In this document: positions 2,551 through 54,370 of the stretch, one piece after another
How the letters are laid out: every line of letters begins with the position of its first letter
Position numbering within the stretch: position 1 is the first letter of the stretch
Translations under genes and position numbers: made by a program
Notes under the pieces: generated by a model
Seen by the model: the letters and a program-made list of their open reading frames with translations, nothing else
Told to the model about the DNA's origin: nothing
Databases searched by the model: none
IMG/VR virus record: IMGVR_UViG_3300049172_000088
Location: 1-64,000 of that record
From: a virus
Taxonomy: Duplodnaviria; Caudoviricetes
Strand: one strand, 5' to 3'
Length of the DNA: 64,000 nt

Positions 2551-4146
2551 TCAGAACGGCCAGTCGGCGTTGCGGCCGGCCTCCAGCAACGGGATGAGCC
2601 CGAAGGCAGCGTCCGACAGGCCGCCGAGCGTGTGCCTGTTGCCGGCTCCCGAGGGTGCCGCGCCGTGCTGGTAGCCGCCGAAGTTCCACATGTAGAGCGG
2701 CACGTGCGCCGGGATGAGGTCGTCGATGCGCGCCTCGCGGCCGCCGCCGTACCCGTAGCCGTTCGACGGGAGCCAGCCGGGCCGGGTCTGCTCGTCGGTG
2801 ACGATCACGACCCGGGTGTGGTGAGGCCGCAGGTGCGTCCGGACCGCCGAGGGGATGTCCGTGCCGTCGAGGCGGCGGAACCGCTCGACGACCTTCAGCA
2901 CCGACTCGCCGCGGCTGAACGGCACCGGGCCGTTCTGGATGCCGAACTCCACCAGGTCGGCCGCCTGCGCGCGCAGGGCGAGCGCGGCGCCGAACACCGC
3001 GGCGGCGTCGGCCCACGGCATGTCGGAGTGCGCCGACATGCGCTGGCCCCACATCGACGGCGACCGGTCCACCAGCACCAGCGTGCGCCCGGCCAACGCG
3101 GGCACGTTCGCGAGGGAGTGCCCGAGCGCCTGCTCCAGTGGGTACGCCCACCGCAGCGACGGCGCGGCCCGATATGCGGCCAGGAACCGGAACGGCAGCT
3201 GCCGCGACCTCGCCACCTCAGCCGGGTCGGCGAGCCGGGCCGCCACCGCTGCCGCGACGACGTCGGACACGCCCGACTGGTCGAAGTTCCGCAGGTTCCG
3301 GGTGAGCGCCATCAGCCCCATCGACGGGATGAGCGACTCCCACAGCTTGGCCTTCTCCACCTTGTCGCCCGCCAGCGACAGCACCGTCTCCCACGTCATC
3401 CCGGCCGCGTGCAACATCTCGGCGTCCAGCAGGGCCGCGGGGTCGCGCTTCGCCCGGTGCCGCAGCATGACGTTGGCCGCCAGCACTCGCAGTTCGCCGG
3501 GGATCTCAGCGTCGGCACGGTGGCGGCGGTCGATGGTGTGCCGGAACAGGTTGCCCTGCCAGGGCGTCCCGGGTGAGGCGTGCACCAGTTCCAGCACGTC
3601 GCCGAACCTGAAGCCGCGGGCGTCGCTGTCGTACTTGAGCAGGCTCCGCTCGGTGTACAGCCGCTGGACGGCGTCGGCGATGCCGCGCTTGACCGGCTTC
3701 GGGACGGCGCGGCCGTACCGGGACGTCCAGTAGGCCAGGGCCTCGCCGGGCTCGTCGGCCCGCTGGAGCACGGTGGTGACCAGCTGGCGGTTGAGGCCCT
3801 GCAGTCCGGCGTCGAGCCGGGCCTTGACCGCTTCGAGCGCGGCGACGACCGGCGCAGAACGCATGTTGGCCTTGCCGCGCAGCCAGGGCAGGAATCGGGC
3901 CAGCCACTCGCCGTCCTCGACGGCCATCTGGTGGACGAGGGCGCGGAATCGGTCGTCGCGTTCGCCGGCGGCCTCGTAGAAGGTCTTCTCGCTGACGAGG
4001 TTGGAGACGGCGAGGAGGAACAGCTCGCTCTTGGCGTCGCGGGTGTAGCCGGCGGCGCCCTCGTAGGTGCGGCCGGTCGGCGTGGCCTCGGTCTTGACCG
4101 GGCTGGAGACGGCCAGGCGGGTGGTCGTGCTGTTGAACTTCGTCAT
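2551..4146 (-). CDS. rsr: TROVE-domain Ro60 ortholog (Rsr) with C-terminal VWA domain
   Basis: YTRDAKSELFLLAV..FYE, MGLMALTRNLRNF, SRQLPFRFLAAY, VWA MIDAS-like LVLVDRSPSM and VIVTDEQ; Y RNAs immediately upstream; 531 aa from ATG 4146. Confidence 0.93.
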   Translation of the reverse strand: MTKFNSTTTRLAVSSPVKTEATPTGRTYEGAAGYTRDAKSELFLLAVSNLVSEKTFYEAAGERDDRFRALVHQMAVEDGEWLARFLPWLRGKANMRSAPVVAALEAVKARLDAGLQGLNRQLVTTVLQRADEPGEALAYWTSRYGRAVPKPVKRGIADAVQRLYTERSLLKYDSDARGFRFGDVLELVHASPGTPWQGNLFRHTIDRRHRADAEIPGELRVLAANVMLRHRAKRDPAALLDAEMLHAAGMTWETVLSLAGDKVEKAKLWESLIPSMGLMALTRNLRNFDQSGVSDVVAAAVAARLADPAEVARSRQLPFRFLAAYRAAPSLRWAYPLEQALGHSLANVPALAGRTLVLVDRSPSMWGQRMSAHSDMPWADAAAVFGAALALRAQAADLVEFGIQNGPVPFSRGESVLKVVERFRRLDGTDIPSAVRTHLRPHHTRVVIVTDEQTRPGWLPSNGYGYGGGREARIDDLIPAHVPLYMWNFGGYQHGAAPSGAGNRHTLGGLSDAAFGLIPLLEAGRNADWPF

Positions 4147-4152
4147 GACGCG

Positions 4153-4190
4153 ACGAGGCCCCTCTCCTGGATGGGTGAGAGGGGCCTCGT
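4153..4190 (-). promoter_or_regulatory. 14-bp perfect hairpin covering the rsr ribosome-binding region
   Basis: ACGAGGCCCCTCTC (4153-4166) pairs with GAGAGGGGCCTCGT (4177-4190); 10-nt loop; ends 6 nt before the ATG. Confidence 0.7.
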
Positions 4191-4200
4191 TCAAGAGTTC

Positions 4201-4331
4201 GCGCCCGAGATCGGAGTCGGCGACGGATACAGCTGCTCTGCCAATTGAGCTACGGACCCCAAGGATCCGACAGGACTCGAACCTGCAACCAGCCGATCGT
4301 CGGAAGTAGCCGTTGCCTGCGCACCGGGCGC
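4201..4331 (-). ncRNA. Y RNA, YrlA-type tRNA mimic (copy 2)
   Basis: Terminal stem CCCGGTGCGCAGGCAACGG...CCGTCGCCGACTCCGATCTCGGG encloses a T arm (GCAGG-TTCGAGT-CCTG), a loop-closed acceptor-like stem and a D arm (TAGCTCAATTGGCAGAGC), in permuted tRNA order. Confidence 0.88.
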
Positions 4332-4346
4332 GTCTCTGAAGTTGTC

Positions 4347-4490
4347 CCCTCCCGAGATCAAGGTCGGCGACGGACACGTAAGCGCTCTAGCCATCTGAGC
4401 TACCCACGCCGGTTAGGGCCTGGGGCAGGACTCGAACCTGCGACCTCTCGCTTACAAGGCGAAGTAACCGTTGCCTGCGCACCGGGAGGG
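4347..4490 (-). ncRNA. Y RNA, YrlA-type tRNA mimic (copy 1)
   Basis: Same 5' arm (CCGGTGCGCAGGCAACGGTTACTTC) and 3' arm (CCGTCGCCGACCTTGATCTCGGG); T arm GCAGG-TTCGAGT-CCTGC; D arm TAGCTCAGATGGCTAGAGC. Confidence 0.88.
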
Positions 4491-4505
4491 TGCGTTTCAA
4501 GTTGT

Positions 4506-4577
4506 GGGCTCAGAGATCGGGAGTGGGTCCGGCGTAGTTTCCCCCAAAGAAGTAGCCGGTCCCGTTCGCACCTGAGC
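4506..4577 (-). ncRNA. Short Y RNA lacking the tRNA-like domain
   Basis: GCTCAGGTGCGAACGGGACCGGCTACTTC...GCCGGACCCACTCCCGATCTCTGAGC shares GGTGCG, CTACTTC and GATCTC with the other two copies. Confidence 0.75.
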
Positions 4578-10279: not shown

Positions 10280-11029
10280 CCGTAGCTCAGCTCCTCGTCG
10301 GCGAGGCCGGCGAGAGCGGCGGCCGCGGCCGACACCTCCTGCAGCTGCTCAGGGCTCATGGCCTTGAGCGCGGCGCGGGCCTGGTCGACGTCACCGCGGT
10401 ACATCCAGCCGAACGCGCCCTGGGCGGTCAAGATACGCCCGGCCTTCCCGACCGCTTCGCCGTGCTGGCGCATGGAGCGCTCGAAGTTCTCCTGCCACTC
10501 CGGGCTGCCGAACGGTGGGGTGGTCACGGCTTGGTCTCCACTCGCTTGATGCCGCCCCGCACGTTGACGCGGGCCTTGATGGTCGTGCCACCGGGGATGG
10601 CGTCGCGGCGGGCTTCCTCGACGAACGCGGCGAGCTCGTCGAGGGTGAGCCCGACCTTGGGGTCGCTGGCGTCGGCTTGGACAGTGCGTGTGATCATGTC
10701 CGGTCCTCTCGGTTCTCCAGCCAGTGGGTCAGGTCGTCCCTGAGTGCGCGCACGAGCTGCTCGTCGAGCACCACGGTGGCGCGGACTTCGCCGCCGCCGT
10801 GCTCTTCGTTGTAGGCGATCATCCCGAGGCGCAGGTAGGGGACGGGCTTCCAGGTGGCCTGATCGCTGCCGTCGGCGTCGATGTGGCACCAGTCTGGGAT
10901 GTGGGCGGTGTCGATGCTGCCGTACCGCCACGGGTCGTCGGCGACGCGGACGTGCGATCCGAGGTAGGCGATCGGCTGCGGCAGGTCGCCATCCCCGTCG
11001 GCGGACAGGCGGGTGCAGTAGATCGACAT
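10276..11029 (-). CDS. Three small hypothetical ORFs (10276-10527, 10524-10697, 10694-11029)
   Basis: Translationally coupled ORFs with high-GC3 codon usage. Confidence 0.6.
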
Positions 11030-11673
11030 CAGGCATCTCCGTAGTAGTAGGTGGCGCGGCCGTCACCCCACACCAGCATGGCGGAGCCGTCCACCTGGTT
11101 CTTCTCGATTCTTCCGGCGGGCCGATCGCCGTTCCCGTCCTCGCACCGGGGGTTGACGCAGCGGACACGGCCAGACTGCTGCGCCACCCGCAGGCTGTAC
11201 GTCGAGCAGTAGACGCAGGCGGGCGGCAGGCCCTTGCTGACCCTGATCGGGATCCACTTCTCCGACTCGCCGATGTCGCGGATCTGCAGACCCCGCTCGA
11301 TCCACGATGCGATCTCCCGGGCCGCCTTCTTTACAGCGTGGTCCGGAGCACCGAATGCGAGCTTGACGATCGCCTTCAGTGCCTCCTCCGTGTTGCCATC
11401 CGAGTCGCCGCGGCCGGCCACCCACCGGCCCGCAGGCAGCTTGCCCGTGATCGCGTAGTGCAGATCCACCTCGATGTCCCGGACGCCGGCGTGCACAGTG
11501 GTGAGCACGCCCGCGGCCTCGACATGCCAGGGCGCCGGCGACCCGGTGACCTTGTGGTGGCTCATGGTGCCCTTGGCCGGGTCGGCGATAGGTTCGGGTA
11601 GCAGCTCCCGCAGGCGGGGCAGCAGCGCCTTCAGCTCCCCCGCCAGTACCTCGACCTCTTCCGCTGGCGTCAT
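11029..11673 (-). CDS. Conserved actinophage Zn-binding putative late regulator
   Basis: PAPWHVEAA...HAGVRDIE...PACVYCSTYSLR...RCVNPRC. Confidence 0.65.
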   Translation of the reverse strand: MTPAEEVEVLAGELKALLPRLRELLPEPIADPAKGTMSHHKVTGSPAPWHVEAAGVLTTVHAGVRDIEVDLHYAITGKLPAGRWVAGRGDSDGNTEEALKAIVKLAFGAPDHAVKKAAREIASWIERGLQIRDIGESEKWIPIRVSKGLPPACVYCSTYSLRVAQQSGRVRCVNPRCEDGNGDRPAGRIEKNQVDGSAMLVWGDGRATYYYGDA

Positions 11674-11693: not shown

Positions 11694-11757
11694 GTACCTG
11701 CCGAGCCGCGACGAGCCCCACCCTGACCTGCCATGCCGAGCCATGCCCAGCCGTGAA
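11694..11757 (-). ncRNA. Orphan pentamer-repeat guide (vrRNA-like) unit
   Basis: Intergenic; 10 pentamers (11703-11752) followed on the minus strand by GGCA-GGT; same grammar as the main array. Confidence 0.7.
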
Positions 11758-11797: not shown

Positions 11798-14578
11798 TCA
11801 GAACGGCGCCTGGTCGCTGATCGCGACGGGGTTGCCGATGGTGAGGTTGCGGCACCAGAGCTGGCCACCCGCCCTTCCGTACGCCAGCTCGGCGTTCTCA
11901 GGGTCGAGCTGCCACAGGGCGTCGGTGCTGGGCGGTTCGTCGGCGCGAGCGGTTACCGTCCACTCGGTGCGGGTGGGCAGCTCGGCCCACGCCTCTTCGG
12001 CTTCGCGGTAGCCGCGCAGCTCGCTGGTGAGCTGGAGGACGGTCCAGAGCACGTTCGCCGTGTTCGGGCCGACGGTGTTCGGCTGCCACTCGGCCAGGGA
12101 TGCCTCGTACGCGGCGTCGATCGCGTCGAGGTCGAGCGGCTCTGGGTCAGGCTCCGTCGGCTCGCGGTGGTCGTCGCGGAGTTCCTCGGTGGTCCACTCG
12201 CGACCGTTCTCGTCTTCGATGATCACGTTCGTCCTCTCTTCCAGTACCGGGTGCGCTGCCAGAGGGTGGCGGGCCGCCACGTCACGCCGATCGCGTGCCC
12301 GCCGTCGTGCACGGGCCATTCGCCGTCCCAGTCGCACGCGTCGCACGCGTCGCCGATCCGCCACAGCGCGCCGCACTGGCACCGCCACAGGTCGCCGAGC
12401 TGGCCGTCGGGCAGCTGGCTGTGGACCACTGCGGGCGGGGCGGTGGGCGACGGCGGCTCCGCGCTCATCGACGGCAGCCGGTAGAGCACGTCACGCATCG
12501 GCGGCTTGCAGGTGTGCGGGTCCGAGGTCGCCCGCCGCACCCAGGTCACGGCTCGATCCCCTGTGCTGAGCAGTAGGTCCGTGCATCGGTCAGGCAGTCG
12601 CCGAGCTGGCCGTACCATGCCGGGTCGTCGTCGAGGTCGATCGCCACCCGCAGTTCCGCTCCGCCGTTGTGGTCGACGGCGCCGAGGGTGACGTGCACTC
12701 CCGCGGCGATGAGCCAGTTCAAGTCGGCGAGAGCCGCCTCGGCCTGCTGCCGGGCTTCGTGCGGGCTGAGCTTGCCGACGCGCTGGAGGACGAACGCGAA
12801 CCGCTCGACCTCGCCCGCGAGCTTGACCTCCATCTCGACGTAGTTCTCGGCGTCGCCGATCATCTCCCGGGCGGCGTGCACCCACACGGCGACGATCTCT
12901 CGCGGCGGGATGAGGTTGAGTTCGAGCTTGCCGCGCTCGACGGTGAGGCCGCGCATCAGGGTCTGGTCGGCGAGGGCCTCCGCGTCGGCGGTGATGCGGC
13001 GCTCCAGCTCGGCGCGCAGCTCGTTGGCCTCGGCGCGGGCCTGGTCGGCGCGTTCCTTCCAGTCGGCGTTCGTCCAGATGTGCGTCTCGTCGCGGCTGGC
13101 GCGGGCGGCGTCCCGCTCGGCGCGGAGCCGGTCGAGCTCGCGGTCCTTGGCCTGGAACGCGAGCGCGATGGCCACGAACTCCGGGCCGTCCACCAGCTCG
13201 GCGAGCTCCGGGTATCGCTGGCGCAGGTGTTCGTCGTTCACGGTGCTATCCCTCGTAGGCGGGGCTGGCGTGGTCGGTGACCCACCGCTCGTACGCCGGG
13301 TCGTCGTGCTCGGGATCGTCGTGGTCTGGGATGGGCTCGGCAGTCACCAGCGCCCCTGGATCTCGGACCAGGTGGCCACCGCGCAGGCGTGCTGCCACAG
13401 CTTCGGCTGCCGGGCGAACAGCTCGGCCTGCTGATCCATCGGCATCTCGCGGATGGCGGCGGCCAGCCCGGCGGCGGCGTCCTCGGCGAGCTTGATGTCC
13501 GGGTAGACCCACCGGATCAGGCGGCGGATCACGTCTCCTCCGCCCGGGCCAGCGCCCGCCGTACGCGGGTGGCCAGCGCCGCTGCGGCGGCGCCGATCGG
13601 GGCTAGGAGCACGGCGGTCGCAGCACATCGCCAGCCGCCGCCCCAGATCGCGGCCAGCAGCAGCCCGAACACGAGCACGAACGACACGCGCGCCGCCAGG
13701 GTGGCGCGGGACACGAACCGCTCAGCCCGGCGGCGATCCTCGGGGGTGAGCTTCGGCGTGGTCATGAAGCCCGCCCGGCAAGCGCAGTGACGGCGACGAT
13801 GGCACAGTCCCGGCACCAGTGGAGCGGCTCGCCACGCCGGGGCAGCTCAGGGACATACGGGTCGCTCAGCGAGCAATCCCGCTCGACGATCACACGGTCA
13901 TCGATGTCGGCCAGTTCCCGCTGGCAGCCGTCGCAGCGGATGATCGTGCTCATCGGTTCCTCCTCACCCGCGCGCGGCGGCGCCGATCGTAGGTGGTCTT
14001 CACGCGGACGACGGCCGGCCACCGCCAGAGCAGCTGCTCGCGGTCGAGGCGGCGTTCGGCGTCGGCGACCACCTTCACGGGGACGATCCGGCGCATCCAC
14101 TGGCTCCACGTCTCGCCGGGCTGCCACTCCCCGCCCGGCTTGAACACGCGCGGCGCGTGGCGGCGCTTCACGCCGCCCGTCCGATGTAGGTGACGACGTA
14201 GCCGTGATCGGCCAGGTCGTCGAGCGCGGCGGCCACCATGGCGTCCCGCGCCGCGATGGGCAGCTGGCCGTCGGTCTCCTGGCTGGAGATACGTGAGATC
14301 GCGTTGAACATGACCGCGCGTGCCCCGCTGTCGTGGCGTGCCGCCTGTGCGCTCTCCTCCTCCAGTGGGCGGCCGAGGCATGCCGCCGCGGCCTTCGCGG
14401 CGATCAGCGCGTCGATCAGCACCGCCTGGCGGACTGCCTTGCCCCTCGTGGCGGCTCTCCTCAGCCGGTCGAGGTCGGCGCCATCCCAGATGTGGTCGAG
14501 GTAGTCCACGACGACGGGTAGCACCATGCGCAGGTAGTCGGAGTCGGCGGTGTTCGCTTCGGTGATCACGTCGGTCAC
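11798..14578 (-). CDS. Run of small early hypothetical ORFs (e.g. 11798-12226, 12223-12549, 12546-13241, 14168-14578)
   Basis: Overlapping start/stop codons; several Cys motifs (CQCG, CDAC, CDGC); no recognisable function. Confidence 0.55.
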
Positions 14579-22198: not shown

Positions 22199-22271
22199 TG
22201 CGGGCAGGGGGATTCGAACCCCCACCGGGCGATGTTTAAGATCGCTGCGTCTGCCGTTGCGCCATGCCCGC
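22199..22271 (-). tRNA. tRNA-Leu(UAA)-like, 73 nt, short variable loop, no encoded CCA
   Basis: GCGGGCA TG GCGCAACGGCAGACGC A GCGAT CTTAAAC ATCGC CCGGT GGGGG TTCGAAT CCCCC TGCCCGC A. Acceptor, anticodon and T stems pair fully; anticodon TAA; discriminator A73. Confidence 0.85.
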
Positions 22272-38945: not shown

Positions 38946-39158
38946 TCAGGCGGCCTGTTGAGCGGGGCGGATGTACGGGGCGAGGAGCGCGGCCAGGCGA
39001 GTGCACTGCTCCTCGGTGAGGGGCGGATCGTGCTCGCCGTCGCGCCAGCCGGCCTCGAAGGCTTGCTGCGGCGTGGTGCAGATCTCCTGCCTGCCACGCC
39101 CCGCCGCACCGAGACGCGCCTTGCCGTACCGCGCCGGGCCTGGGTCGTTAGTGGTCAC
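38946..39158 (-). CDS. Small phage protein whose 5' part overlaps an orphan guide unit
   Basis: ICTTPQQAFEAGWRDG..DPPLTEEQC.RLAALL; GTGA overlap with the upstream gene. Confidence 0.6.
   Translation of the reverse strand: MTTNDPGPARYGKARLGAAGRGRQEICTTPQQAFEAGWRDGEHDPPLTEEQCTRLAALLAPYIRPAQQAA
39087..39140 (-). ncRNA. Orphan pentamer-repeat guide (vrRNA-like) unit
   Basis: 9 pentamers (39096-39140) followed by GGCA-GGC on the minus strand. Confidence 0.72.
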
Positions 39159-39577
39159 GCCGCGTCCTCACCGACGTCGCGGCGGACCATGGCGTAGAAC
39201 TCGGAGAACTGCTCGTAGCGACGCCGGAGGGCCTTCCATTCGCGCTCCATGTCCTTGAGCAGGAGCTGCGCCGTGAACGGGTCCGTGGTCACCTTGTCCA
39301 CGGGCTCGTACACGTGGCCCTTCTCCGACCGAACGGCGTGGAACGCGCGCACGCTCTGCTCGGGGTTCTTCTCGTCGGCCTCGCGGTAGACGATCCGAAC
39401 CGACCGGATGAGCTGGTGCGCCTGCTCGCGTCGCCACGCCTCGCCGGCGACCGCGTCGTTCCACTCGAACCGGTCGTGCAGCGGGTGCTGCTCGTCGCGA
39501 GCTTCGTCCACCACCAGGGCGGGCGTGAGCTGCGCGTGCCGGTCGTAGATGGCCTGGAGCTGCTCTCGGAGACTCAC
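39155..39577 (-). CDS. Accessory protein coupled to the RAMP-like gene
   Basis: 140 aa; LTPALVVDEARDEQHPLHDRFEWND..AGEAWRREQAHQLIRSVRI; GTGA overlap with the upstream gene. Confidence 0.8.
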   Translation of the reverse strand: MSLREQLQAIYDRHAQLTPALVVDEARDEQHPLHDRFEWNDAVAGEAWRREQAHQLIRSVRIVYREADEKNPEQSVRAFHAVRSEKGHVYEPVDKVTTDPFTAQLLLKDMEREWKALRRRYEQFSEFYAMVRRDVGEDAA

Positions 39578-40206
39578 GAGCTGAGGACCTCCACTTCGCG
39601 GGTCGGGTCGATCTTGTAGGTGCCGAAGTCGCCGTCCCGCTCCGGCCGCCACTCGCCGACGCCGACGCCCATGCCGCCAGCGTCGATCAGCGACAGGACA
39701 GAGCCGCGGGTGAGGGCGGAGGTGACGTAGGTGACTTCCAGGACGGCGGACCACTCGCGGAACTCGGGCCGGTACCTGAGGTCGGTGCCGCCGCGGCCGA
39801 CGGTGACGACGTCCTCGCGCATCTGGGCCTCGCCGTCGATGCGGGTGAGGGCGCGGCCGTCGTCGCCGACCTCGCCGCCGAAGAACAGGAACTGCTTGAG
39901 GGCGGTCATGGTGACGCCGGAGTAGAAGCGGGCGCCGCCGATGGTGGCGGCCTTGAACGCGATCGACGGGAAGCCGGGCGAACCGTCCTTGAGCCGGTAG
40001 TAGGCGGCCTCGTACTCGGCGTGCGGGTCCTTCGGCTGCTTGGGCGACTTGCGGCCCTGCATCGCGTCGAGCATGGCCTTTTTGGCCTTTTCGGAGAATC
40101 TGTGGACGATCAGAGGCGTTGTGCCCACGATCGGGACAGAGATCGTTTCCGCCGCGATCCGGTCAATCTGGACGATCGCGTCGTCCGACTTTCGGGCAGC
40201 ACACAT
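39574..40206 (-). CDS. Cas7/RAMP-like protein (Vipr-like)
   Basis: 210 aa from ATG 40206 with a GAAAGG RBS. Has a beta strand + G.TPL start (IVGTTPLIVH), GFPSIAFKAA, LRYRPEF..W, and a C-terminal Gly-rich loop (GGMGVGVGEWRPERDGDFGTY) as in RAMP proteins. Confidence 0.8.
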   Translation of the reverse strand: MCAARKSDDAIVQIDRIAAETISVPIVGTTPLIVHRFSEKAKKAMLDAMQGRKSPKQPKDPHAEYEAAYYRLKDGSPGFPSIAFKAATIGGARFYSGVTMTALKQFLFFGGEVGDDGRALTRIDGEAQMREDVVTVGRGGTDLRYRPEFREWSAVLEVTYVTSALTRGSVLSLIDAGGMGVGVGEWRPERDGDFGTYKIDPTREVEVLSS

Positions 40207-40238
40207 TGCGCTAACCTTTCGATGAGAAGTGAGTGATG

Positions 40239-40270
40239 GGGTCCGGACGCCGTGCAGGGCGACCGGACCC
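40239..40270 (-). terminator. Hairpin between the array and the RAMP-like gene (terminator or processing site)
   Basis: GGGTCCGG (40239-40246) pairs with CCGGACCC (40263-40270). Confidence 0.5.
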
Positions 40271-40282
40271 TTCTTCATGCGT

Positions 40283-41323
40283 GGGCCGCGCCTGCCATGA
40301 CGGGCCATGCCGAGACGTGCGGAGCCGCAACAGGACGAACCGCGCCTGCCCTGCCAAACCCAGCCGTGCCTAGTCCCGCCGTGACATGCCGGACCGCACC
40401 ACACCGAGCCATTCCTGCCACGCCAAGCGACGCCAAGACCCGCCCTGACAAGACGAGCCGTGCCGAGCCATGCCTGCCGTGCCGCGCGATGCTGTGACGG
40501 ACCTAGACGGACCGCGCCAAGACCCGACTGCCGGGCCACGCCTTGACTAGCCGAGACCAGACCCGCCATGTCCTGCCTGCCGTGCCATGCGGAACCTAGC
40601 CGGGACACACCACAACAAGCCCCGCCTTGCCGCGCCTGACAAGCCGGGCCGCACCATGCGGAGCCGAGCGGAGACTTGCCACGCCACACCGTGCCTGCCG
40701 GACCTGGCCATGACTGGCCGCGCCTCGCCGGACCTCGCCTCGCCACGCCTGCCGAACCACGCCGTGCCCGAACGTGACAAGCCCTGCACAGAACAACCGC
40801 GCCTGCCACGCCAAGCCACGCCAAGCCCGACCGGGACCTGACTGGACATGCCGCGCCATGCCATGACTGCCAAAGCTGGCCGTACGGCGCCACGCCGTGA
40901 CTAGCCCTGACCCGCCAAACCGGGCCTGCCGAACCGTGCGATGCCGAACCAAGCCCGGACACGCCCCGCCGAACCCCGCCTGCCACGCGAAGCCATGACC
41001 AGCCGCGCCGCGACGAGCCCTGCGAAGCCATGCCTGCCAAGCCAGGCCACACCCTGCCTGGCCGAACCGCGACCTGCCACTCCGCGCCTGCCAAGACAAG
41101 CCAAGCCCCGCCGAGCCGAGACCCGCCGGACCGAACCACGCCTGCCATGACGGGCCAAGCCGTGACCTGCCGGGACTTGCCCAGCCTTGCCTGCCTCGCC
41201 ATGCCTGAACTAGCCCAGCCCGAACATGCCCCACCCCGCCAGGACTGCCTCACCACACCAAGCGGAACCCCGCCGAGCCCGGCCACATCTCGCCTGGACC
41301 GGCCAAGCCTGACCATGCCTGCC
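40283..41323 (-). repeat. Pentamer-repeat guide array: 18 units of 9-14 x (GGY/GTC)NN with GGCA separators
   Basis: Parsed by hand: 191 pentamers + 18 tetramers = 1027 bp, exactly 40297-41323. One more GGCA and 2 pentamers lie at 40283-40296. Confidence 0.93.
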
Positions 41324-41445
41324 ACGTTGATCGTCAGAAGGCTCTTCCTGGCGTTGCAGTTGCGGCACCGGCCGCGCCAGCTCTCGTTCGAGGAGTAGCA
41401 CTTGCCACAGGTCCACGGCGGCTGCTTCGGCGGCTGCGGCGTCAC
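41324..41445 (-). CDS. RanBP2-like zinc-finger ORF 5' segment reading into the array
   Basis: WTCGKCYSSNESWRGRCRNCNARK; GTGA overlap with cro; the frame stays open through the array. Confidence 0.5.
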
Positions 41446-41714
41446 GCTGCACCCGCCTCAGCCTGGGTCTCCTCCGCCGGCTCCCCGTAGGGATTCGCGA
41501 GGATGGCGCGGCGGTCGGTGATGCCCAGTGCCCGCAGCATCGCGGTGAAGACCGTGGGGCTTACGTGGGTCCGGCTCCCCAGTTCGACGTGGGCCAGGTA
41601 GGCCCTGCTAATTCCGATGAGGTCGGCGCACGCCTGGGTTTTGATCCCGCTGCGTACTCGGATCTCTCGGAACGCGGGTCCGTTGACCGCGACCATCGTG
41701 GGGGTTCTGGGCAT
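41442..41714 (-). CDS. Cro-like XRE HTH regulator
   Basis: FREIRVRSGIKTQACADLIGISRAYLAHVELG; divergent from the repressor. Confidence 0.85.
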   Translation of the reverse strand: MPRTPTMVAVNGPAFREIRVRSGIKTQACADLIGISRAYLAHVELGSRTHVSPTVFTAMLRALGITDRRAILANPYGEPAEETQAEAGAA

Positions 41715-41891
41715 GCCAGAAGTTTAGGCACAGCTTGCCACAGCTTTCAACAGCTTCCTCTAGAAACATTTATAGCTGTGCCATGTGGCGGCAAGGTAAG
41801 GGTTTTGTGGCATGCATCAGGGCTTATGTCTCACTGGGTAAGTCTGGAGATGTGCTTACCTGTGTCAGGGTGTGTCTGTCATGCTGTCTCC
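41715..41891. promoter_or_regulatory. Lysis/lysogeny divergent promoter-operator region
   Basis: AT-rich; ACAGCTT three times at an exact 10-bp period (41730, 41740, 41750); inverted AGCTGTGC at 41774-41781. Confidence 0.7.
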
Positions 41892-42380
41892 ATGGACAGA
41901 GAGACAGCCCGACAGGCGCTCGCCGAACGAGTGCGCCGCAGGCGACTCGCTCTCGGTTGGTCCATCGACGAAGCCGCCGAACGGGGCAGCATGAGCCCCA
42001 CCACGTGGACACGCGTCGAAGAGGCCAAGAAGGTACGCGACCTCACCTACGCAGGCATCGAACGCGCGCTCGGCTGGCAGCCCGGCAGCGTCGACCAGAT
42101 CGCCGAAGGAGGCGAGGCAAAGGAGGCGGAAGGCCTCCAAGGCATCGTCCGCTTCACCGGAGAGCAAGCCCTTCAGGTCGCCAGGCAGCTACCGCCGGCC
42201 GCGCTTCACGAGATCCTCTCGGAGCAGATCGATCCCCAGCTCCGGAAAATCATCGACTCCTGGTCGCTGCTACAGCCGTGGCAGCGGAACATGGTGCACG
42301 GCGTGCTGGAGCAGATTCTCAGCCAATCCCCCGAAACGGCAGGTAAACCGACACGAACCGAGGAGCGTCGCACAGGGTAA
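41892..42380 (+). CDS. Immunity repressor (XRE HTH)
   Basis: LAERVRRRRLALGWSIDEAAERGSMSPTTWTRVE...IERALGWQPGS. Confidence 0.85.
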   Translation: MDRETARQALAERVRRRRLALGWSIDEAAERGSMSPTTWTRVEEAKKVRDLTYAGIERALGWQPGSVDQIAEGGEAKEAEGLQGIVRFTGEQALQVARQLPPAALHEILSEQIDPQLRKIIDSWSLLQPWQRNMVHGVLEQILSQSPETAGKPTRTEERRTG

Positions 42381-42922: not shown

Positions 42923-43749
42923 TCGCCCGACTGCCCCGGATCGTCTACCAGGACTTAGCCGACAATCAGGAGTACATTCTCGGCGAAACCGACGACGGCC
43001 GGCCGCTCATCATCATCTCCGCCGCACTCGACGAGCCAGGCCGCAAGAGGGCCCGCAGGGCCGCGATGGCCGAGTTACGGCACCGCCGCGGAATGGCCGC
43101 AGGCCTGCTTTTACTCATCACCGGGGCCGCCGCCGCTACGTCTGAGCGGGTCCAGGGATGGCTACGCACTCCGTTCGGTGCCGCCGTCGCCGCCAGCGCG
43201 ATGACCGGCGTGGTAGCAGTCGGCGTCACCGAGATAAGGCGAGTCGAACCACCCACGGCCGCACCGCCGCCAGTCGTGGTCACCGTCCGAGAGGTTCCCC
43301 CGCCGGCCGCCTCCAGCACCCGCTCCCCCATCCCGTCGGAGCGGTCCACCCGCACGCAACCTCCCGAGCCTCCCGCCGACGCCCGCGGCGACCCAGGAGG
43401 CGAGCTGCCCGCCAGGCCGACTCCGGCCGCTACCCCTCCACGAGCGGACGACCCGCCCACAAGGCAGTCGTCACGCACGCCCTCGCGCACAGCACCGGCC
43501 AGCATGCCAGTCGCCTCCGAGTCCGAGGTGGAGGAGAGCACCAACGAGTCGACCGCCACTCCATCCAGCCCGCCACCCGCGGCCGACGACGAGGCTACGA
43601 CACAGGCCACAGACGATCAGCCGGACACCCCGCCGGCCACGAGTGCGCCACCGCCATCGCCCGCCGCTATCCCTGACGACTGCGATGGGATTGGGCTAGA
43701 CGTGGAGATCGACCCGCTGCTTGGAGTGAACGCCTGCCTGCTCGGGTGA
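42919..43749 (+). CDS. Membrane protein with a Pro/Thr-rich extracellular tail; three TTA codons
   Basis: Two hydrophobic segments and a long P/T/S-rich region; in-frame TTA at 42955, 43075 and 43111. Confidence 0.7.
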   Translation: MIARLPRIVYQDLADNQEYILGETDDGRPLIIISAALDEPGRKRARRAAMAELRHRRGMAAGLLLLITGAAAATSERVQGWLRTPFGAAVAASAMTGVVAVGVTEIRRVEPPTAAPPPVVVTVREVPPPAASSTRSPIPSERSTRTQPPEPPADARGDPGGELPARPTPAATPPRADDPPTRQSSRTPSRTAPASMPVASESEVEESTNESTATPSSPPPAADDEATTQATDDQPDTPPATSAPPPSPAAIPDDCDGIGLDVEIDPLLGVNACLLG

Positions 43750-45174
43750 CAAGGGAAGCGGGATGAGGTCGACGCTGGCCGGGTCGAAGCCGGGCCCGCG
43801 CTTCGTCTGCGGGAGGATGATCACGCGGTAGAGGGCCCGGACGGTGTCGGCGCGCACGTCGATCGGGGTGGCGTCCCACTGCTCGCGGGTGATGCCCGCC
43901 ATGCGGACCAAGAGCCGCTGGCGGGCATTCTCCACGTGCCGGTTCCGCAACTCGGTGATCTTCTTGTCGAACGAGGCGATGGACGCGGCCACGTCGGCGA
44001 CGTCGAGGCCGGGATGGTCGGCGAGGTTCCGTAGGGTCTGTTTCGTGTCGGCCTTGCGCCGCTCCAGGGCGACGATCTCGGCCGCCACGCCTGGCTCCGG
44101 CCCGAGGACCATCGACAGCAGGTCTGGGTCTTGCAGCCGTCGCAGTACTCGCCCCGTCACATACTCGTCGAGGTGGACGAGGCTCCGGGACACCTTCTTG
44201 GAGCACTCCGGGTTGTTGCAGTGGTAGAGCCGCATATCCTTGCGGCCGCGACGGCCGTTGGCGGGCTTCGTCCGGACGCCGACGCTGCAGGAGACGCACT
44301 CGGCGACGCCGCTGAGGAGGTAGATGCGTTCCTTGCCGTAGGCGTGGGCGCCGTTCTCCTCGAGGAGGCCCTTCAGGGTCTCCCACTCCTCACGGGATGC
44401 AGCGGCAGGCCAGATGGCCGGGACAAGCTGGCCGTTGCGCTGGATGAGGCCGGCGATCCTCGGCGACCGGATGATCTTCTTGAAGACGACCGCCCGCCAT
44501 CGGCCGCCCTCAGTCGTGGTGGACACGGAGTTCAGCCAGCGGATCACTCCGGCCAAGCTCTGCCCTCCGAGCAGGCGCTGGAGTCCGTCGCACAGGATCG
44601 GGAACTCGGTGGGATGGGCCTGGTTCGTGTCGTAGATCGGCTTTCCGCTGATGCCCGTCTTGCCGGTGGGCACGCCGTAGCCGAAGGGCCGCTTCCCGCC
44701 GCTCCAGGCCTCCCCCTTGGCTGCCTTGGCGTCCACGCCGCGTTTCACCCGGCGCGAGGTGCTCGCCGACGACTTGCACGCCTGCGCGACCTCGATGCGC
44801 AGGATGAAGCGATCGTCTTCGCTGGCGAGGTCACGCACGCCCTGGGGGGACGCGAGCGCGATCGATCGGTCGTCGGCGAGCTTGAGTAGCTTCTCCAGGT
44901 CCCATGGCTGCCGGATCAGGCGGTCGCCGTGCCAGACGAGCACGCCGTCCACCTCACCGCGCTCGATTGCGTCGAGGAGCCTGTCCCAGGCCGGCCTCTT
45001 GCGGTTACGCTGCCAGGCAGAGCGGGAGTTGTCCTTGTAGATGTGGCGTTCGTCGATGGGCCAGGCGAGGCGGTCGGCAAGCTGGCGGCAGTCCTCCTCT
45101 TGCCGCTCAACCTTCTCCACTGATCCATCGGGCGCGTAGCTGAGCCTGCAGTAGATCGCAGCGGATTTCGGCAT
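43696..45174 (-). CDS. int: Large serine recombinase (integrase)
   Basis: AAIYCRLS (catalytic Ser), YKDNSRSAW, DRLIR, recombinase domain, and a zinc ribbon (LLSGVAECVSC...YHC). Confidence 0.95.
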   Translation of the reverse strand: MPKSAAIYCRLSYAPDGSVEKVERQEEDCRQLADRLAWPIDERHIYKDNSRSAWQRNRKRPAWDRLLDAIERGEVDGVLVWHGDRLIRQPWDLEKLLKLADDRSIALASPQGVRDLASEDDRFILRIEVAQACKSSASTSRRVKRGVDAKAAKGEAWSGGKRPFGYGVPTGKTGISGKPIYDTNQAHPTEFPILCDGLQRLLGGQSLAGVIRWLNSVSTTTEGGRWRAVVFKKIIRSPRIAGLIQRNGQLVPAIWPAAASREEWETLKGLLEENGAHAYGKERIYLLSGVAECVSCSVGVRTKPANGRRGRKDMRLYHCNNPECSKKVSRSLVHLDEYVTGRVLRRLQDPDLLSMVLGPEPGVAAEIVALERRKADTKQTLRNLADHPGLDVADVAASIASFDKKITELRNRHVENARQRLLVRMAGITREQWDATPIDVRADTVRALYRVIILPQTKRGPGFDPASVDLIPLPLSPEQAGVHSKQRVDLHV

Positions 45175-52517: not shown

Positions 52518-53288
52518 TCAGCTGACCGGGCGCTCCCACGTGGCCCTCCAGGTGGCCGGGCCGACGATGCCGTCGTCATCGAGCGGCCAGCCGTGCACGG
52601 TGCTGTCCCGCTGGAACGCGCTGCAGACGTCGCGGGATCGCGGCCCGTACGAGCCGTCGGGGATCAAGTCCCAGCCGCGGTCTCGCATCTGCGCCTGCCA
52701 GCTGTAGACGTCGGCGCCGCTCATGGTCGGTGGGCACCTGAGGAGGCGGCCAGGGAACGGCGGCGCCTTCTCCGGCTGCCCGCCAGGGCGGGGCGCTCCG
52801 GCCTTCACCCAGGCGTACAGCCGCGAGCCTGGGCAGTCGGTGGCGTAGCCGTCGCGATGCCCCTTGATCTCCGGCCCGGCGCCGCCCTCGGCGCGCAGCC
52901 ACTCGATCGCGTCGCGGATGCCGTGCAGCATGGTGTCGGGCGGGACGACCAGGCCCGAGTTGCCGACCAGGCCGAGCACCGCGTAGTGGCCGGAGTTCAG
53001 GCCGGCCCCGTTCGCCGCAGGAAGGCGGTTGAGGCCGCGGCCGACGAACACCTTCCGGTGCGGGCAGACCGCGGCGGTGTAGCCGAAGTCCAGCCAGCCC
53101 TGGTTCATGTGGGCCTTCTGGATTCCGCGCACGGTGGCGAAGCAGAGGTCATGGTCTTCGGCCAGCTTGGGATCGACCCGCGAGCCGACATAGTGGATCT
53201 TGCAGCCGCGTGTCCGGGACAGCCGCTCGTACGCTCCTTTCGGCGCGAGAGCCTTCCATTCCTTGCGCGTGATGAGGTCAATGGCCAC
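52518..53288 (-). CDS. Endolysin: N-acetylmuramoyl-L-alanine amidase + peptidoglycan-binding domain
   Basis: KIHYVG, HMNQGWLDFGY, GHRDGYATDCPG, and C-terminal DGSYGP...FQ...DDGIVGPATW. Confidence 0.93.
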   Translation of the reverse strand: MAIDLITRKEWKALAPKGAYERLSRTRGCKIHYVGSRVDPKLAEDHDLCFATVRGIQKAHMNQGWLDFGYTAAVCPHRKVFVGRGLNRLPAANGAGLNSGHYAVLGLVGNSGLVVPPDTMLHGIRDAIEWLRAEGGAGPEIKGHRDGYATDCPGSRLYAWVKAGAPRPGGQPEKAPPFPGRLLRCPPTMSGADVYSWQAQMRDRGWDLIPDGSYGPRSRDVCSAFQRDSTVHGWPLDDDGIVGPATWRATWERPVS

Positions 53289-53310
53289 GTCAGCGTCCTC
53301 TCCGAACGGC

Positions 53311-53434
53311 TAGGCTGAGGGTGTTCGTGGTTCGGCACGGCCTGGTGCGGTCCGGCGTGTCTAGGCTGGTCATGGCTTGGCACGTCCCGGCAGGCGAGCC
53401 CAAGGCGGGCGGGGTCAGGGATCCTGCCCGCCTT
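53311..53434 (+). ncRNA. Stand-alone pentamer-repeat guide gene (vrRNA-like) with its own promoter and hairpin
   Basis: TAGGCT (-10-like) at 53311; 12 pentamers at 53329-53388; GGCA-GGC; hairpin AAGGCGGGC...GCCCGCCTT at 53402-53434. Confidence 0.82.
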
Positions 53435-54017
53435 CTGCTTGTGGCGTGCAGGTGTAGGTGGTGGAGCCTGCGGGGTCGGGCGTGCACAGGTGGGTGACCC
53501 CATCGATCGGGATCGTCAGCGACGCTGGCGCCGGCCCCGGTTCTCCGCGCGGCCCTTGCTCGCCCTGAGGTCCTGGGCTGCCTTGCGGTCCGGGCTCGCC
53601 GGTCGGGCCCGGTTCGCCGCGTGGTCCTTCCGGTCCCGCTGGTCCTGTGTCGCCGGGGGCGCCAGGCTCTCCCGCAGCGCCGTCTTTCCCATCCACGGCG
53701 TTGCGGCCGTCATCCCCGTCGTCCCCTTGAGGGCCTGGCGGTCCCGATGGTCCTGGCTCGCCTTGCGGTCCAGGAGGCCCGGATGGTCCGACTGCGCCGC
53801 GCTCACCCGGCGGCCCGGGCGACGGCGAGACGAGCGGCACTCCGCCGAGACGTTCGACCTGCTCGACCAGCACCTGCCGGTCCTCTTCGGCCTGGCGCAC
53901 TCGTCCGCCGAGCGCGTTGACCTGGACGGACACCCACAGGCCGAGGAGGACGACCACGACTACTCCGGCGATGAGCGGCCACGACCGGCGCACCTTGCGC
54001 ACGTGCTCACCCATCAT
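53415..54017 (-). CDS. Membrane-anchored collagen-like (G-P-X repeat) protein, lysis cassette
   Basis: TM helix, coiled coil, then GPP/GPQ/GEP triplets. Confidence 0.85.
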
Positions 54018-54370
54018 CCGCCGCCTCGCGGTGCGAGCCACACCTGGACGGCGATCGTGAGCAGGATGAACAGGGTGGGCAGGATGCCCGAGTAGACGAT
54101 CTGTCGCAGGTTGCCGCCGCGCTTCTCCTCGCGCTTCTCGTCGGCGGCTTCCAGCCTGGTCACGGCGGCGTCGAGTGCACCGCGTAGGGCCCTCACCTCG
54201 TCGAGGAGGGTGCGGCGTAGCTCATCGACGTCGCCTTCGACCTCGGTGAAGCGGCGTTCGATGAGCCGCTGATCGGCGGCGTACTCCGCACGCTGGATGA
54301 GCTGGGCCAGGCTCATGACAACGCCGTCCAAGCGGCGGGCCAGCTCGCCCGGGGATGGCTCATCGGCCAC
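54014..54370 (-). CDS. Lysis-cassette membrane protein
   Basis: [14 protein letters not shown]...coiled coil...C-terminal TM helix. Confidence 0.7.

Follow-up and report, generated by a model that had tools for sequence, protein, structure and literature searches.

A solo vrRNA gene beside the endolysin gene of an actinophage, probably aimed at the endolysins of related phages

A short gap upstream of the endolysin gene of an actinophage contains a run of G-rich pentamers, which raises the question of what this run encodes and against what it is directed. The window analysed here (64,000 nucleotides) comprises the first 64 kb of a virus record of 83,685 bp with 70% GC. The sole public holder of the sequence is one soil-metagenome DNA run, and the region has no megablast match among GenBank phages. 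The gap (53289–53414, 126 bp) is enclosed by two minus-strand genes and contains no open reading frame. One of the two genes (52518–53288) encodes an endolysin with an N-terminal domain of the PGRP/amidase_2 type and a PG_binding_1 domain (phrog_1493, E 4e-47; PF01471; PGRP structures, E 1e-11). Opposite the endolysin, the gap is flanked by a collagen-repeat tail-fibre-like gene (53415–54041, minus strand). At gathering thresholds, Rfam reports a single tRNA in the whole window (22199–22271, minus strand) and no Y RNA family in 2551–4577.

The element is read on the plus strand. A −10-like box, TAGGCT (53311–53316), is a candidate promoter and is located 10 nt ahead of the repeats. Two degenerate pentamers follow (53317–53326), whose GGTGTTC is conserved in L018, a related locus from Nonomuraea. 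The guide tract itself consists of 13 pentamers of the form NN+GKY (53327–53391) and is closed by a terminal 4-nt unit AGGC (53392–53395). The resulting GGC-A-GGC boundary is also found in the main array of this phage. The 3' tail (53396–53445) is predicted to fold into a 15-bp hairpin (53402–53434) and ends in a T-rich run (fold energy −68.2 kcal/mol, z −2.9). The collagen-like gene of the opposite strand ends within this tail, which together with the AGGC unit is conserved in one relative, L018. The earlier note on this DNA had listed TAGGCT, 12 pentamers, GGCA-GGC and a hairpin. All of these are present, with the corrections that the pentamers number 13 and that two degenerate ones precede them. 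The NN pairs had been decoded correctly; on the C-rich strand they read, 5' to 3', GG GT AA AT CA TA AC GG GC AG GT GA, and the thirteenth pair adds AC.

The triplets between the NN pairs are GGC or GGT in 10 of the 13 units and GTC in the other three. Thirty simulations of the 83.7-kb genome with a third-order Markov model gave no in-phase run longer than 6, so 13 of 13 triplets in phase are far outside chance. The G-rich strand at 53.3 kb opposes the surrounding genes, whereas the other three tracts of this phage share the gene strand. An RNA carrying the GGY triplets would therefore need its own promoter here. A scan of 53150–53550 returned neither a sigma-70 promoter nor an intrinsic terminator; the one promoter-like feature on the plus strand is a TANNNT box (TAGGCT here, TAGAGT in L018). 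A further TAGGCT at 53363–53368 is a piece of the repeat tract.

Pentamer RNAs of this type belong to VIPR, which was described in 2026 in bioRxiv preprints (10.64898/2026.04.26.720920, 10.64898/2026.04.26.720927 and 10.64898/2026.10.15.759431). According to these, Vipr is a minimal RAMP protein whose protomers polymerise on a vrRNA; every protomer binds a single GGY triplet and exposes the NN pair next to it. The vrRNAs consist of 9–16 GGY/NN (YNNGG) pentamers. Their NN pairs read double-stranded DNA with one base skipped between pairs (1-nt-skip rule, 10.64898/2026.04.26.720920). The skipped base is usually the wobble position of a codon, either strand can be targeted and a PAM is not needed. 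Binding of the Vipr-vrRNA complex represses transcription, and natural targets with an NN match of at least 80% are found in competing phages and satellites. Solo vrRNAs, staggered arrays and alternative repeat consensuses are mentioned in the preprints as well, and solos are described as decoys in satellites. Some solos target vipr, and vrRNA-targeting vrRNAs score lower on self than on non-self (10.64898/2026.10.15.759431). The skip-one code and the polarity that had been proposed from the sequence of the present locus are those of the published rule (10.64898/2026.04.26.720920). The tract at 53327–53391, with 13 tandem YNNGG units, a GGY scaffold and hypervariable NN positions, has the form of a vrRNA. 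The system is thus one already known at preprint level and not a new kind of system.

The window also contains the protein component. The gene at 39574–40206 (minus strand; phrog_4652) encodes a protein of 210 residues, for which AlphaFold (AF2) gave a model with a pLDDT of 95.5 from a 64-sequence alignment. The leading fold matches (Foldseek, VIA) all belong to the Cas7 family, with Csm3 and Cmr4 at Z 11.4–11.5. A profile of the 64 homologues matches PDB entry 36pp_D ("SUSP1 Vipr protein") over nearly the full length with an E-value of 5.4e-13. The RAMP protein that the earlier note presupposed is accordingly present as a small, single-RRM protein with the Csm3/Cas7 fold, homologous to SUSP1 Vipr. 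Its homologues number in the thousands, with more than 3,000 in this family. A conserved partner gene encoding 140 residues (39155–39577, minus strand; phrog_15946), presumed to be vap, adjoins vipr in the studied phage (G000) and in L004 and L005; L-numbers denote the related loci compared. In most of the other related loci the conserved motif of the partner is found just downstream of vipr. Pfam assigns no family to either protein, and an Atlas search with the partner returned only unnamed viral hypothetical clusters. Next to a vipr homologue, either upstream or downstream, a pentamer array is present in 13 related loci, with the G-rich strand being the gene strand. These loci come from Nonomuraea and Thermoactinospora prophages, IMG/VR contigs, and Gordonia and Mycobacterium phages, among them the named phages Gordonia UmaThurman and Ecliptus and Mycobacterium Brocalys.

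The main array of the studied phage (40290–41325, minus strand) is staggered and comprises 18 vrRNA units of 9–14 pentamers, mostly 54 nt long. All units are separated by a 4-nt step (GGC-A-GGC on the G-rich strand) and have no further tail. Besides the element at 53.3 kb there are two more solo vrRNAs, both on the minus strand. The second (39089–39142, "solo 39k") lies at the 5' end of the open reading frame 38946–39158, and the third (11696–11754) is located 27 nt upstream of the gene at 11029–11673. The 21 units of the genome contain 225 pentamers with GGC (56%), GTC (17%) and GGT (16%) as scaffold triplets; the NN positions have 50% GC versus 70% for the genome. Neither the phage's own genome nor the related loci (712 kb) contain a match above the shuffle null for any of the 18 array units. 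From the divergent HTH genes at 41442–42380 (cro-like, 41442–41714, minus strand; a longer HTH open reading frame, plus strand) and the serine integrase (43696–45174), the phage is taken to be temperate and the array, vipr and the partner to form part of its early lytic operon. L004 and L005 show the same layout.

Some peculiarities of this operon concern its reading frames. A stop-free frame on the minus strand (39574–41445, 623 aa) runs from a small Zn-ribbon gene through the 1-kb array into vipr. Few stops are possible on the G-rich strand, and a rough estimate puts the chance of such a run at a few percent. Reading the array as a protein gene was rejected since the periodicity is 5 nt and not 3; it may nevertheless be translated, or the frame may simply be free of stops. 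The Zn-ribbon gene (41335–41445, minus strand), which follows the cro-like HTH gene and precedes the array, would encode a 37-residue Cys4 peptide whose similarity to the RanBP2-type zinc ribbon is weak (PF00641, E 0.003, below the cut-off). The first array unit agrees with the homologous finger gene of L004 in 20 of 28 positions, which is inside the shuffle range. Solo 39k occupies the 5' part of an open reading frame for 70 residues (38946–39158), whose GTG overlaps the stop codon of the partner gene. One possibility is that the repeat tract encodes the N-terminus of the product; otherwise the true start is uncertain.

The system resembles type II VIPR of Escherichia phage SUSP1 and a P. fulva prophage in its minimal RAMP protein homologous to SUSP1 Vipr, its RNAs of 9–16 GGY/NN pentamers, its wobble-aligned targets obeying the 1-nt-skip rule, its targets in competing phages and its phage-borne locus with one accessory gene. 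It differs from these in belonging to an actinomycete phage of 70% GC, in its staggered main array without long tails, in the proportion of GTC among the scaffold triplets and in a partner protein of no recognisable family. A further difference is the target, which is an endolysin.

This target is evident from the matches of the guide. The genome was scanned on both strands with one free base allowed after each NN pair. Among about 167,000 positions in the 83.7-kb genome, the single best skip-one match is located at 53170–53207 (minus strand), in codons 28–40 of the phage's own endolysin. It agrees in 19 of 26 informative bases, and none of 100 guides with shuffled NN order reached this value (mean best 16.9). 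Leaving out the thirteenth unit, the codons are those quoted in the earlier note (53207–53172, minus strand; codons 28–39), in codon phase and with 18 of 24 bases identical. The footprint covers the catalytic His strand, as had been recognised there; in alignments its His corresponds to the first conserved His of amidases of the PGRP type, a Zn ligand in this family. In the phage's own enzyme this strand reads G-C-K-I-H-Y-V-G-S-R-V-D. The own gene mismatches the guide at 6–7 informative bases, including those for Cys29 (instead of Val), Val34 (instead of Thr) and Ser36. Another difference is an Arg codon CGG instead of AGG. With a score of 0.73–0.75, the own site stays below the 80% cut-off used for natural targets in the preprints; the own site of solo 39k, at exactly 0.80, is borderline. 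The guide tract lies 39 bp from the own endolysin gene.

Related endolysins match considerably better than the own gene. In a set of 120 loci with endolysin homologues (712 kb; some loci are filed twice), the guide matches 51 loci with 22–23 of 26 informative bases at the homologous, wobble-aligned site. Shuffled guides reach at best 19 across the same 712 kb, and related prophage endolysins overall match in 21–23 informative bases at this site. Of 301 genomes from the host family, to which the Nonomuraea host genome belongs, 66 (22%) have at least one site that mismatches in 3 or fewer of 24 bases (a match of at least 87.5%). With the reversed pattern as a control, none of the 301 genomes has such a site. 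All six host-family sites that were sampled lie at codon 28 of full-length endolysin homologues, and the target sites in this family encode G-V-K-[VI]-H-Y-T-G-G-R-V-D. The 13 NN pairs of the guide thus specify the conserved G-V-K-[VI]-H-Y-T-G strand (codons 28–40) of PGRP-type endolysins in prophages of the host family. The best natural sites score 0.88–0.92. They lie in other mobile elements, exceed an NN match of 80% and have the skipped base on the wobble position, as natural VIPR targets do.

The competitor allele predicted by the earlier note therefore exists in prophage endolysins, at 22–23 of 26 bases against 19 of 26 in the own gene. As far as the sequence goes, every computable part of the reading in that note is supported. 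The exact 24-base form of the decoded pattern, which it had suggested as a query, has no hit in IMG/VR or the GTDB species genomes (596 Gb); the best natural targets agree in 22 of 24 bases. At the second position of the strand, 63 of 65 distinct endolysin homologues have Val and two have Cys. The two Cys29 carriers are the studied phage and L018, and no other locus has a full solo upstream of its endolysin. Cys29 in these two represents one evolutionary event, not two.

Most probably, the element at 53311–53445 (plus strand) encodes a solo vrRNA belonging to the phage's own VIPR system, a guide that would silence the endolysins of relatives while the own allele escapes. The solo RNA would be transcribed from its own plus-strand promoter and loaded into the phage's Vipr. 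The loaded guide would then silence the lysis gene, and anything downstream of it, in related resident or co-infecting phages, and the own endolysin allele would be spared. Tight linkage of the guide and the escape allele would keep recombinants from targeting themselves. Several points count against this explanation. A perfect target is absent from IMG/VR and the species genomes, the plus-strand promoter amounts to a conserved TANNNT box, the 18 array units have no hit above the shuffle null in the sequences compared, and it is not evident what a phage would gain by silencing the endolysin of a rival within the same cell as long as its own lysin is expressed. The cryo-EM preprint text that was searched does not mention how many mismatches Vipr tolerates. 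A tolerance figure being absent from that text, a site matching in 18 of 24 bases may still be bound, or one matching in 22 of 24 may fail to bind.

The relative L018 counts in part against it as well, and it bears on two other explanations. Its solo (L018 1391–1460, plus strand; 14 units) is found in the same place upstream of the endolysin. The flanks are conserved, including the −10-like box (TAGAGT, with differing neighbouring bases), the AGGC unit and a hairpin that is one pair shorter. Its NN pairs, on the other hand, are completely different from those of the 53.3-kb solo, and the L018 guide has no target in 121 host-family genomes or in the related loci compared. The endolysin of L018 has the same escape allele as that of the studied phage. 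The guides thus change more quickly than the sequences around them, and the coupling of guide and allele is not strict.

The solo could accordingly be a decaying or retired vrRNA, which was once aimed at endolysins or copied from the ancestral own allele before the own gene drifted. This agrees with the fast NN turnover seen in the homologous solo of L018, with its unrelated guide and no detectable target, and with the absence of a perfect natural target from IMG/VR and GTDB. It is nevertheless an unlikely explanation. The scaffold triplet is intact in each of the 13 units, and conservation extends to the −10-like box, the AGGC unit and the hairpin. Furthermore, the guide still matches 22% of the host-family genomes at 87.5% or better. 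The changes in the own gene sit at positions that are nearly invariant among the 65 homologues.

It is very unlikely that the element regulates the own endolysin, be it as a cis-antisense RNA on the 5' UTR of the late transcript or as a weak self-guide that times lysis. It is true that the collagen-like/endolysin transcript runs antisense to the G-rich strand, that no other site in the own genome matches the guide as well as the own endolysin site, and that solo 39k reaches 0.80 on its own gene. However, a self-regulator would be expected to keep its match, and L018 has kept the allele and not the guide. Self scores below non-self in all five solos for which a comparable homologue of the neighbouring gene is available. 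Moreover, the score is about 0.6 or lower for three of the own sites, whereas the best matches of unrelated guides in the genome reach 0.64–0.85. That the pentamer tract serves an oligomeric protein as a binding platform or decoy, in the manner of TRAP or a sponge, with uninformative NN positions and a coincidental endolysin match, is scarcely credible: the 11-triplet units, the 1-kb array and the satellite decoy solos of the preprints would fit, but 23 of 26 bases at one codon-phased site in dozens of genomes, with zero in the control, cannot be coincidence, and in the published biochemistry the NN pairs specify the targets.

The preference for relatives over self recurs in the other solos of this clade. 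The solo of L004 is located 10 nt upstream of the own vap. Its best match is the vap motif H-P-L-H-x-R-F-E-W in 11 other loci (15–18 of 22 bases); the own vap reads A-H-E-L-H-R-F-F-E-W, and its in-frame sites have at most 12 of 22. One L005 solo lies just after the own vipr and matches the 3' end of vipr of the studied phage and L004 in 19–20 of 26 bases, compared with 15 of 26 in the own gene. At this footprint the own vipr shows changes of Thr to Cys, Lys to Gln and Ile to Val. For solo 39k, the own site (39046–39074) agrees in 16 of 20 bases and is the best in the genome; the single homologue found, L144, agrees in 18 of 20. The 11.7-kb solo is a borderline case, with 17 of 22 bases in the homologue L145 (at nucleotide 154 of the gene) and 13 of 22 at the same site of the own gene. 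No homologues of the gene at 11798–12388 were found in IMG/VR. In total, five of nine solos point at homologues of the adjacent gene and match self less well than non-self. For the remaining four (L018, the second L005 solo, L010 and L017) no target was found in the related loci compared. Around some 50 units in the relatives, self-matches show no excess over the background; this local test is uninformative because the own alleles have diverged.

It is an even question whether solos in the actinophage VIPR clade are systematically placed about 20–200 bp from the own, footprint-diverged copy of their target gene. So far, the layout has been seen for the endolysin, vap, vipr and two genes without known function. 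Either the linkage of guide and escape allele is selected or it is a trace of guide origin. In the first case, the two could be a poison-antidote pair, linked in one cassette and passed on together by phage recombination in a drive-like, homing-like manner. In the second, the layout could reflect how new guides arise or home beside their target; the origin of new guides is left open in the VIPR preprints.

The logic of a linked guide and resistant allele is otherwise familiar from homing endonucleases. The Seg and Mob families are free-standing homing endonucleases of T-even phages. In these, too, a selfish element directed against the sensitive form of an adjacent gene is linked to the resistant allele in its own genome. 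The likeness is one of logic only, since the agent here is an RNA guide that would use a protein encoded 13 kb away, whereas cleavage and gene conversion are features of the endonucleases. No endonuclease gene is present beside the resistant target, where the neighbours are the collagen-like tail-fibre gene and the endolysin.

The solos of SUSP1-like phages and F5 satellites (10.64898/2026.10.15.759431) are closer relatives. They likewise are vrRNA genes outside an array, some target the vipr of relatives near its end, their footprints cover codons of the catalytic core, and self matches less than non-self, which avoids autoimmunity. Those solos, however, occur in phages that lack VIPR, where vipr-vap has been deleted, or as satellite decoys, whereas the studied phage keeps vipr and has its solos about 20–200 bp from the diverged own copy of the target. 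Two of the three VIPR preprints, checked for these words, contain no mention of endolysin targets, alleles or genetic linkage. In one supplement file of the discovery preprint there is likewise no mention of the actinomycete taxa searched for, of endolysin or of amidase.

With the backbone of type III CRISPR-Cas (Csm3/Cmr4, Cas7), Vipr shares the RRM/G-loop/thumb fold (Z 11.5) and the protein filament on a guide RNA with periodically interrupted pairing. The period of VIPR is 5 nt with two informative bases, in contrast to 6 nt with five, and according to the preprints double-stranded DNA is recognised by triplex formation. A CRISPR array (direct repeats of about 25–40 nt with unique spacers) is not present; tandem-repeat and Rfam scans of the window show only the pentamer tracts and one tRNA. 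The triplet spacing is also similar to that of TRAP sites (about 9–11 triplets with 2–3-nt spacers, bound by a ring protein). Unlike in TRAP, the associated protein is a RAMP and not a TRAP-like ring, and the orientation at 53.3 kb is antisense to the gene. A TRAP-like or CsrB-like sponge, DNA iterons or a centromere, a two-tetrad G-quadruplex and a Rho trap had also been considered and were dropped after the Csm3 fold and the VIPR preprints came to light.

All VIPR systems characterised until now come from phages of enterobacteria and Pseudomonas, and the window provides a complete example from an actinophage. What this instance adds is the endolysin target and the recurring arrangement of a guide beside an escape allele. 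The target can be read directly, as the conserved His-bearing strand of a lysis enzyme in about one fifth of the host-family genomes. Since the self-protecting changes are visible in the own gene, both the number of NN mismatches needed for discrimination of self and non-self and the reason for placing guides beside own resistant alleles become testable. The module is also present in cultured phages of Gordonia and Mycobacterium smegmatis, which brings bench tests within easy reach.

A few minor observations concern the related loci. The Vipr homologues of L012, L013, L015 and L016 have 37–41% identity and are encoded on viral contigs of 38–61% GC; no GGY/NN tract is present within the flanks fetched for these four. 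L012 has a different 5-nt-periodic stretch at 808–908, far from its vipr homologue. A Cys substitution is found in two independent escape alleles, as Val to Cys in the endolysin footprint (53170–53207, minus strand) and as Thr to Cys in the vipr of L005 (10565–10603); this may be a coincidence. In the cultured phages, the array of Ecliptus (L002, 4627–4818) is an unannotated gap, that of Brocalys (L003, 3654–3830) lies upstream of gp45, and that of UmaThurman (L001, 4624–4895) is annotated as the protein-coding gene gp40.
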